2,413 nt of DNA from Escherichia coli (GTDB taxonomy: Bacteria > Pseudomonadota > Gammaproteobacteria > Enterobacterales > Enterobacteriaceae), in the NCBI RefSeq assembly GCF_003334255.1, contig NZ_QOWU01000134.1; one strand, written 5' to 3'. The notes under the pieces were generated by a model that was not told the origin of the DNA, searched no databases, and saw only the letters and a list, made by a program, of their open reading frames with translations. Shown in pieces: positions 1,390 to 1,456 of the stretch. The translations under genes and the position numbers were made by a program. Position 1 is the stretch's first letter. The number at the start of each line of letters is the position of its first letter.

Positions 1390-1411
1390 AATTACCTCTC
1401 GCTTTTCTGCA

Positions 1412-1438
1412 ATAAAAAAGGCACCATTTCTGGTGCCC
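1412..1438 (-). terminator. Rho-independent terminator between J and lom
   Basis: Minus strand reads GGCACCA-GAAA-TGGTGCC-TTTTTTATT: a perfect 7-bp G/C-rich stem (plus 1420..1426 pairing 1431..1437), a GNRA tetraloop, and a 6-T run (plus A6 at 1414..1419). On the plus strand the same hairpin is not followed by a T-run, so it is unidirectional. Confidence 0.7.
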
Positions 1439-1456
1439 GTATCTGGGTTATAAAAT

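Follow-up and report, generated by a model that had tools for sequence, protein, structure and literature searches.

A terminator-type hairpin between the tail gene J and lom of a lambdoid prophage

The spacer between the tail-tip gene J and the outer-membrane-protein gene lom of the prophage analysed here very probably contains a terminator-type hairpin that is kept by selection. Somewhat less firmly, we take it to be a genuine intrinsic terminator within a Q-antiterminated late operon, which would insulate lom and stf in the prophage; the involvement of Q is proposed by analogy with lambda. The element is of an ordinary kind and is a homologue of the hairpin at the same junction of lambda, which is annotated in neither NC_001416 nor J02459.

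Layout of the window and anatomy of the hairpin

The window, i.e. the whole stretch of 2,413 bp that was analysed, comes from a lambdoid prophage and covers the distal end of its string of tail genes; prophage P-EibA of E. coli ECOR-9 matches it with 99.8 % identity and phage PhiR5_1 with 97 %. The minus strand carries all genes of the window, namely the 3' end of J, lom and the start of stf, and the following features were assigned:

1457 to 2413, minus strand: 3' end of J (tail-tip/host-specificity gene), an open reading frame that runs off the window edge; stop TGA at 1459 to 1457
1390 to 1456, minus strand: J-lom spacer, 67 bp, constrained non-coding sequence
1447 to 1452, minus strand: TATAAC hexamer (GTTATA on the plus strand), not a promoter element
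1420 to 1438, minus strand: terminator stem-loop; 5' arm GGCACCA (1437 to 1431), loop GAAA (1430 to 1427), 3' arm TGGTGCC (1426 to 1420)
1411 to 1419, minus strand: terminator U-tract; T6 (1419 to 1414), then A and TT
1395 to 1400, minus strand: lom Shine-Dalgarno sequence GAGAGG, 5 nt from the ATG, the same in all junction families including lambda
790 to 1389, minus strand: lom, an open reading frame for an outer-membrane beta-barrel of the Ail/Lom family, 199 aa; ATG at 1389 to 1387
652 to 758, minus strand: candidate sRNA-like transcription unit with an extended -10, a predicted start at about 745 to 743 and a length of about 92 nt, ending in the terminator at 686 to 652
652 to 686, minus strand: second intrinsic terminator, between lom and stf; 13-pair stem, U8, dG -20.1, z -4.28
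1 to 638, minus strand: 5' part of a side-tail-fibre gene (stf or orf-401-like), assigned from its translation with collagen-like Gly-X-Y repeats; ATG at 638 to 636

J was assigned from the genes annotated as J under the match in PhiR5_1, P-EibA and Stx phages and from its C-terminus, which aligns with lambda J. Lom is identical to Lom of P-EibA (100 %) and shares 41 % identity with lambda Lom (E = 4e-52), and the stf-like gene is annotated in relatives as ORF-401-like or side tail fiber. In the stf-like protein, a long collagen-like Gly-X-Y region begins about 135 residues from the N-terminus (window 1 to 250, minus strand), which accounts for the 63 % GC of this part of the window. The late gene string …J-lom-stf-tfa is co-oriented, with the terminator inside it, and syntenic with lambda, PhiR5_1 and P-EibA. 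The J-lom junction was detected in 4,353 of 5,426 complete E. coli genomes (about 80 %), with a median of two copies.

On the gene strand, the spacer reads AATTTTATAACCCAGATAC-G-GGCACCA-GAAA-TGGTGCC-TTTTTT-ATTGCAGAAAAGC-GAGAGG-TAATT-ATG. The stem consists of seven Watson-Crick pairs and a possible closing G1438·U1419. The original prediction had given a spacer of 67 bp, which was confirmed (1456 to 1390), and a terminator with a 7-bp GC stem, a GAAA loop and U6, of which everything held except the all-GC composition, as the stem is GC-rich with five G-C and two A-T pairs. The terminator had also been placed about 20 nt before the lom ribosome-binding site; the gap from the T6 run to the Shine-Dalgarno sequence is in fact 13 nt. 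Hairpin and tail fold with a dG of -14.2 kcal/mol (z = -5.05), and none of 200 shuffles was equally stable. When a site was defined by at least 7 Watson-Crick pairs, a loop of 3-8 nt and T6, 0.0005 terminator sites were expected per dinucleotide-shuffled window (both strands) versus one observed, and a looser terminator scan of the window also recovered the J-lom hairpin. With 76 nt or 216 nt of context it is kept in both the MFE and the centroid fold; it begins 18-19 nt past the J stop and is co-oriented with the genes, and on the opposite strand no T-run was found 3' of it. The hallmarks of an intrinsic terminator, a GC-rich stem-loop with an adjoining U-tract, co-orientation past a stop codon and a pairing kept in evolution, are thus all present. 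With canonical Rho-independent terminators of E. coli and lambda the element shares a GC-rich stem of 7-8 bp, a 4-nt loop, at least 6 U and the location past a stop codon; unlike these, it lies inside a continuing operon (lom, stf, tfa) and 13 nt from the next Shine-Dalgarno sequence, and hence does not mark an operon end under antitermination.

A comparison with the lambda J-lom junction (NC_001416, about 18,920-18,945), proposed along with the original prediction, revealed a different hairpin and T-run at the same place. Both junctions share, in the same order, the J stop, a GC-rich hairpin, a T-rich run, the GAGAGG Shine-Dalgarno sequence and lom, as well as a tetraloop of GNRA type (GGAA in lambda, GAAA here) and a second terminator before stf. 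The lambda hairpin itself, CGTCCG-GGAA-CGGGCG followed by TTTTATTAT, is however unrelated in sequence and weaker, with 6 pairs including a G·U, a dG of -9.7, an interrupted U-tract (T4-A-TT-A-T) and a spacer of 61 bp.

Conservation and covariation of the spacer

Loci with lom were gathered from IMG/VR with window Lom and lambda Lom as queries; to these, the reference locus of lambda and a single Stx1a phage were added. A hairpin with a T-run was detected at most 60 nt upstream of the lom ATG in 158 of the 160 loci, in 13 distinct hairpin sequences with dG values of -9.7 to -15.4. The terminator-type hairpin of the original prediction is therefore upheld, with selection shown by this recurrence, by covariation in the stem and by the unrelated lambda hairpin at the same place. 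In close relatives, the common spacer polymorphisms affected two unpaired bases immediately 5' to the stem and, in a covarying manner, two of the stem pairs (A-U to G-C and C-G to U-A), for which G·U intermediates occur. An alignment of 26 non-redundant sequences gave GC 12, AU 10 and GU 2 for pair 34/45, CG 18, UA 5 and UG 1 for pair 35/44, and AU 17, UA 4 and UG 2 for pair 37/42, counts that do not represent independent events in this sample of related, recombining prophages. Changes on both sides were thus observed at three stem pairs, 92 % of the alignment cells were paired versus 38-62 % with slid partners, and most of the unpaired cells came from the two rows of lambda, owing to their misalignment by two columns. 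The observed covariation score was matched by 0 of 500 shuffles. Together with the alternative loop orientation in one junction (L160) and the different stems of the type-B and lambda junctions, the wobble intermediates form the pattern expected of selection on RNA pairing.

This pattern also bears on a role at the DNA level, in which the spacer would be a short homology for lambdoid recombination, or recently spread by recombination, and the hairpin and T-run would be incidental. Such a role would fit the identity island formed by the spacer between flanks of 30-77 % (85-95 % identical where the J end drops to 30-70 %, and 92 % identical in one phage with lom at 40-77 %) and a rearrangement breakpoint in the left arm of the hairpin in one locus (L151). 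It is nevertheless highly improbable, as three pairs show compensatory changes, G·U intermediates included, which together with the different lambda hairpin argues for selection on RNA pairing, and recombination alone leaves a hairpin with T-run expected so rarely by chance unexplained. In L151 (IMGVR_UViG_2537561977_000017), unrelated DNA replaces the sequence upstream of lom at about 1440 to 1500; the breakpoint lies within the left arm (…GGCATTA/CACCAGAAATGGTGCC…, the stroke marking the join), a 5-bp stem remains, and the nearest upstream ORF end is 334 nt off. In L149, L153 and L168 (Stx1a phage Stx1a_10012), the spacer is a conserved island between mosaic modules, which suggests that module exchange repeatedly uses or preserves the J-lom junction.

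Constraint is not limited to the stem. The U-tract was near-invariant in 58 distinct type-A sequences, with two rows showing a one-base deletion at the join of 3' arm and T-run. Among 58 distinct close relatives, 2 of 63 spacer positions were polymorphic (covarying pairs excluded) versus 105 of 210 third-codon positions of the flanking J and lom (Fisher p = 2.7e-13), and the segment from the T-run to the ATG (-29 to -1) showed no polymorphism with a minor allele count of at least 2. Conservation of the U-tract and the Shine-Dalgarno sequence can be explained by termination and translation initiation; the AATTTTATAACCC segment in the 5' part of the spacer and the stretch from the U-tract to the Shine-Dalgarno sequence show constraint beyond what these two obviously explain.

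That the entire spacer is constrained, including an AU-rich 5' part not needed for termination, would be expected if the stem-loop acted mainly as a decay barrier in the long late transcript, with the U-run being secondary. It might then protect the 3' end of J mRNA after endonucleolytic cleavage and/or stabilise a processed lom mRNA as a 5'-proximal hairpin, with the AU-rich AAUUUUAUAA just upstream of the hairpin as putative cleavage site. The robust folding in long contexts agrees with such a function, as does the argument that a Q-modified polymerase ignores the terminator during lytic growth, so that selection would have to act on the RNA or during the prophage state. A pure decay barrier, however, needs no U-tract, and this is kept with at most a one-base change in length in all families including lambda; moreover, a match to the minimal RNase E motif would be expected by chance in an AU-rich 18-mer. 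We therefore regard processing or stability as an unlikely main function of the hairpin, and it may coexist with termination.

Promoter candidates upstream of lom

Promoters were searched with a crude sigma-70 position weight matrix (PWM) of approximate published hexamer frequencies. In its calibration, lacUV5, PR and PL reached 13-14.5 bits and the weak lambda PRM only about 5 bits, and a PR' string gave a best match of about 5 bits with no credible -10. A separate sigma-70 scan of the window led to no promoter-like site, nor was any found within the spacer or, at a conserved position, over the final approximately 400 nt of J. As the weak PRM itself scores so low, lom may still have a weak or activator-dependent promoter.

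The original prediction had pointed to TATAAC past the J stop as a -10-like hexamer. It had been placed 2 nt off (1445 to 1450 instead of 1452 to 1447), and it has neither the conserved T at -7 nor a -35: its best partner is CAGGCA at 18 nt, and this combination scores 3.35 bits, a background value reached by about 3 % of the window positions. The hexamer is kept in almost all type-A junctions and is CATAAC in L160, ATTAAC/TATTAA in type-B junctions and absent from lambda. From its background score, the missing -35 and the lack of conservation outside type A, it was rejected as a -10.

Several further candidates could be dismissed as well. The best spacer match still able to serve lom has 3.8 bits; a match of 6.67 bits places its -10 over the lom ATG, so that its start would fall inside lom. 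It had been stated correctly that there is no room for a promoter between the T-run and the ATG, which are only 25 nt apart: 3' of the hairpin this family has only TTTATT-type hexamers without an A at -11, and lambda has TATTAT/TATAAA without a -35, which are not shared. Inside J, CTGATA-17-TGAAAT at -266 (7.8 bits) and ATGACA-16-CAGCAT at -165 (6.9 bits) were the relevant matches, and with the exception of TTGAYA no such J-internal match, up to 7.8 bits, is conserved in position across families. TTGAYA, with a 16-nt spacer and about 210 nt upstream of lom, occurs in most junction families sampled including lambda and is absent from L089 and L090; it was rejected as a -35, since it represents the codons aTT-GAT-ATG / gTT-GAC-ATG of the (I/V)DMP motif of J and its paired -10s are inconsistent.

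These results weigh on the idea, raised in the original prediction, that a weak promoter at the J end (TATAAC or further inside J) fires in the lysogen and that read-through of the hairpin sets the Lom level. In its favour are the retention of TATAAC in almost all type-A junctions, the moderate matches inside J (7.8 and 6.9 bits) and lom transcription in lambda lysogens as reported in PMC1151598. Against it, TATAAC is at background level, changed in type B and absent from lambda, the J-internal matches are not conserved in position, with TTGAYA being a coding motif, and a transcript starting at about 1440 would reach the terminator within about 30 nt. With 5'-leader attenuators the J-lom element shares the placing of a terminator hairpin directly before a coding sequence; unlike them, it shows no identifiable promoter, anti-terminator fold, leader peptide or Rfam match. 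No alternative anti-terminator fold appeared in the 216-nt fold, in which the terminator hairpin is unchallenged, and an Rfam search gave no family for the J-lom leader (E <= 1). An anti-terminator or riboswitch was accordingly rejected: a conserved promoter, an exclusive anti-terminator and an Rfam family are all lacking here. We consider a leader attenuator decidedly unlikely.

A literature search revealed neither a mapped lom promoter nor a mapped J-lom terminator, and published expression data are in conflict. Lambda lom was not detected in lysogen arrays, where its promoter is called little known or uncharacterised (PMC2147009). Expression of lambda lom in repressed lysogens is reported from older work (Reeve & Shaw 1979, as cited in PMC1151598) and from one array study, which implies a promoter not found here. 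For lytic growth, PMC9836094 mentions strong expression of lambda lom with reference to Liu et al. 2013. Distant Ail/Lom genes of podoviral Stx phages and the P1-like SJ46 have AT-rich upstream regions and no terminator; as the lom context of Phi24B is of this podoviral kind, the published Phi24B lom expression data do not apply to the J-lom junction. Neither can K-12 TSS and Term-seq datasets address the element, as this junction is lost from Rac (L163 390 to 600, E. coli K-12 MG1655), where a deletion fuses the tape-measure-like ynaA to mid-lomR. The lomR gene of Rac is further split by IS5, and its lom-stf terminator is kept.

The lom cassette and its place in the late operon

The terminator between lom and stf directly precedes the stf Shine-Dalgarno sequence in both a short (lambda-like) and a long form of the spacer (also at L001 1313 to 1340 and L163 2010 to 2040), and lambda and Rac have equivalents. 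Therefore, lom is bracketed by two terminators, and stf and tfa lie behind both of them. The short form shows the stem/loop variants CCGGAACCGGTGGG, CCGGTTCAGGCGGG and CAGATTCTGGCGGG, which suggest compensatory change.

The long form of the lom-stf spacer measures 151 bp here (789 to 639) versus 64 bp for the spacer of lambda, which lacks this form; of 153 lom loci, 35 contain it, as do 1,640 of the 5,426 complete E. coli genomes. It contains a perfect extended -10, TGT-TATAAT (TGTTATAAT, 758 to 750), with 10.4 bits the top gene-strand PWM match in the window, which is conserved in most variants (TGnTATAAT or TGTTATGAT) and degenerate in L137. The candidate transcript would have a variable hairpin on its 5' side and the strong terminator at its end, and a single position varies in the central segment; the fold of the transcript has a z-score of -2.87, and no double compensatory changes were detected among eight variants. 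The predicted transcript has no ORF of at least 20 aa on the same strand, no Rfam match and no RefSeq ncRNA annotation, and its pairing with the conserved lom leader is no better than background. The small RNA 24B_1 of Phi24B, located 'downstream of lom', was rejected as a relative, as it comes from a different phage type and shows no sequence similarity. From its sequence features, the unit looks like an unannotated small-RNA gene beside an outer-membrane-protein gene.

Together with bor, lom is routinely cited as a lysogenic-conversion gene of the lambda prophage and as a model moron. A moron has its own sigma-70 promoter upstream, then the gene, then a factor-independent terminator downstream; the term is said to have been defined by Juhala et al. 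in 2000 for HK97 and HK022, with the cor moron of HK022 as an example. As expected for a moron, lom is an extra gene between conserved genes, absent from HK97, HK022 and N15, and a factor-independent terminator follows immediately downstream (686 to 652). In this it resembles other lambdoid morons, being an accessory gene between tail genes and followed by such a terminator as is HK022 cor; unlike in these, a terminator occupies the place of the promoter, no sigma-70 promoter of its own was found immediately upstream, and its base composition is ordinary (54.8 % GC versus 52.0 % in the J end). On this reading, the cassette has the order terminator-lom-terminator and not the promoter-gene-terminator layout of a moron.

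In HK97, HK022 and N15, lom is missing and J is present but not directly followed by a terminator, which indicates that the hairpin travels with lom and not with the J end; its origin as an end-of-J terminator of lom-less ancestors is accordingly unsupported. N15 does have putative rho-independent terminators in its tail cluster, assigned by the depositors, one preceding the J-like gene 21 and one separating cor from the tail-fibre gene 25. Like the J-lom element they lie inside a late gene cluster and adjoin genes for accessory membrane proteins, although their positions and sequences are different and lom is absent. In HK97 (L165 3050 to 3160), the 207-bp spacer between J and stf contains two inverted copies of an IS5 terminus (GGAAGGTGCGAATAAG … CTTATTCGCACCTTCC) about 90 bp apart and resembles a miniature remnant of IS5 at the site that lom occupies in other phages.

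In lambda, RNA polymerase modified by Q and coming from PR' reads through terminators across the late operon. Applied to the window, outside of which the Q/qut region of this prophage lies, the Q-modified polymerase would pass both terminators during lytic growth, and lom would be expressed together with stf and tfa. Unmodified polymerase, wherever in the tail genes it began, would halt at the J-lom terminator of the repressed prophage, so that lom and stf would be insulated. The lom gene would thus be a terminator-bracketed cassette of the late operon, and Lom in lysogens may be due to leakage of the terminator, to spontaneously induced cells or to a non-canonical promoter unrecognisable by sequence. 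A late-operon terminator fits the non-detection of lom in lambda lysogen arrays (PMC2147009) and the strong lytic expression mentioned in PMC9836094 (with reference to Liu et al. 2013); it sits uneasily with the lysogen transcription of lom reported in PMC1151598 (citing Reeve & Shaw 1979).

Beyond a passive terminator, the 67-nt spacer might be a conserved regulatory leader, with lom strictly dependent on antiterminated or conditionally read-through transcription and 'lysogenic conversion' by Lom arising from regulated leakage or processing at the AU-rich site, with no dedicated promoter. The spacer exceeds the first and second codon positions in the flanking genes in its degree of conservation, and we still consider such a leader quite unlikely. 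If true, it would upset the textbook picture of lom as a moron with its own promoter and explain the conflicting expression data from lysogens.

An intrinsic terminator in the late operon remains the reading we favour. It reveals no new mechanism; what has been added to the original prediction is evidence that selection acts on the pairing and the spacer as a whole, that the hairpin goes with lom instead of J, and that the promoter expected for a moron is not recognisable. With a selected terminator in the place of the moron promoter and no recognisable promoter, the default expectation for lom would be that of a late-operon gene which is insulated in the prophage.
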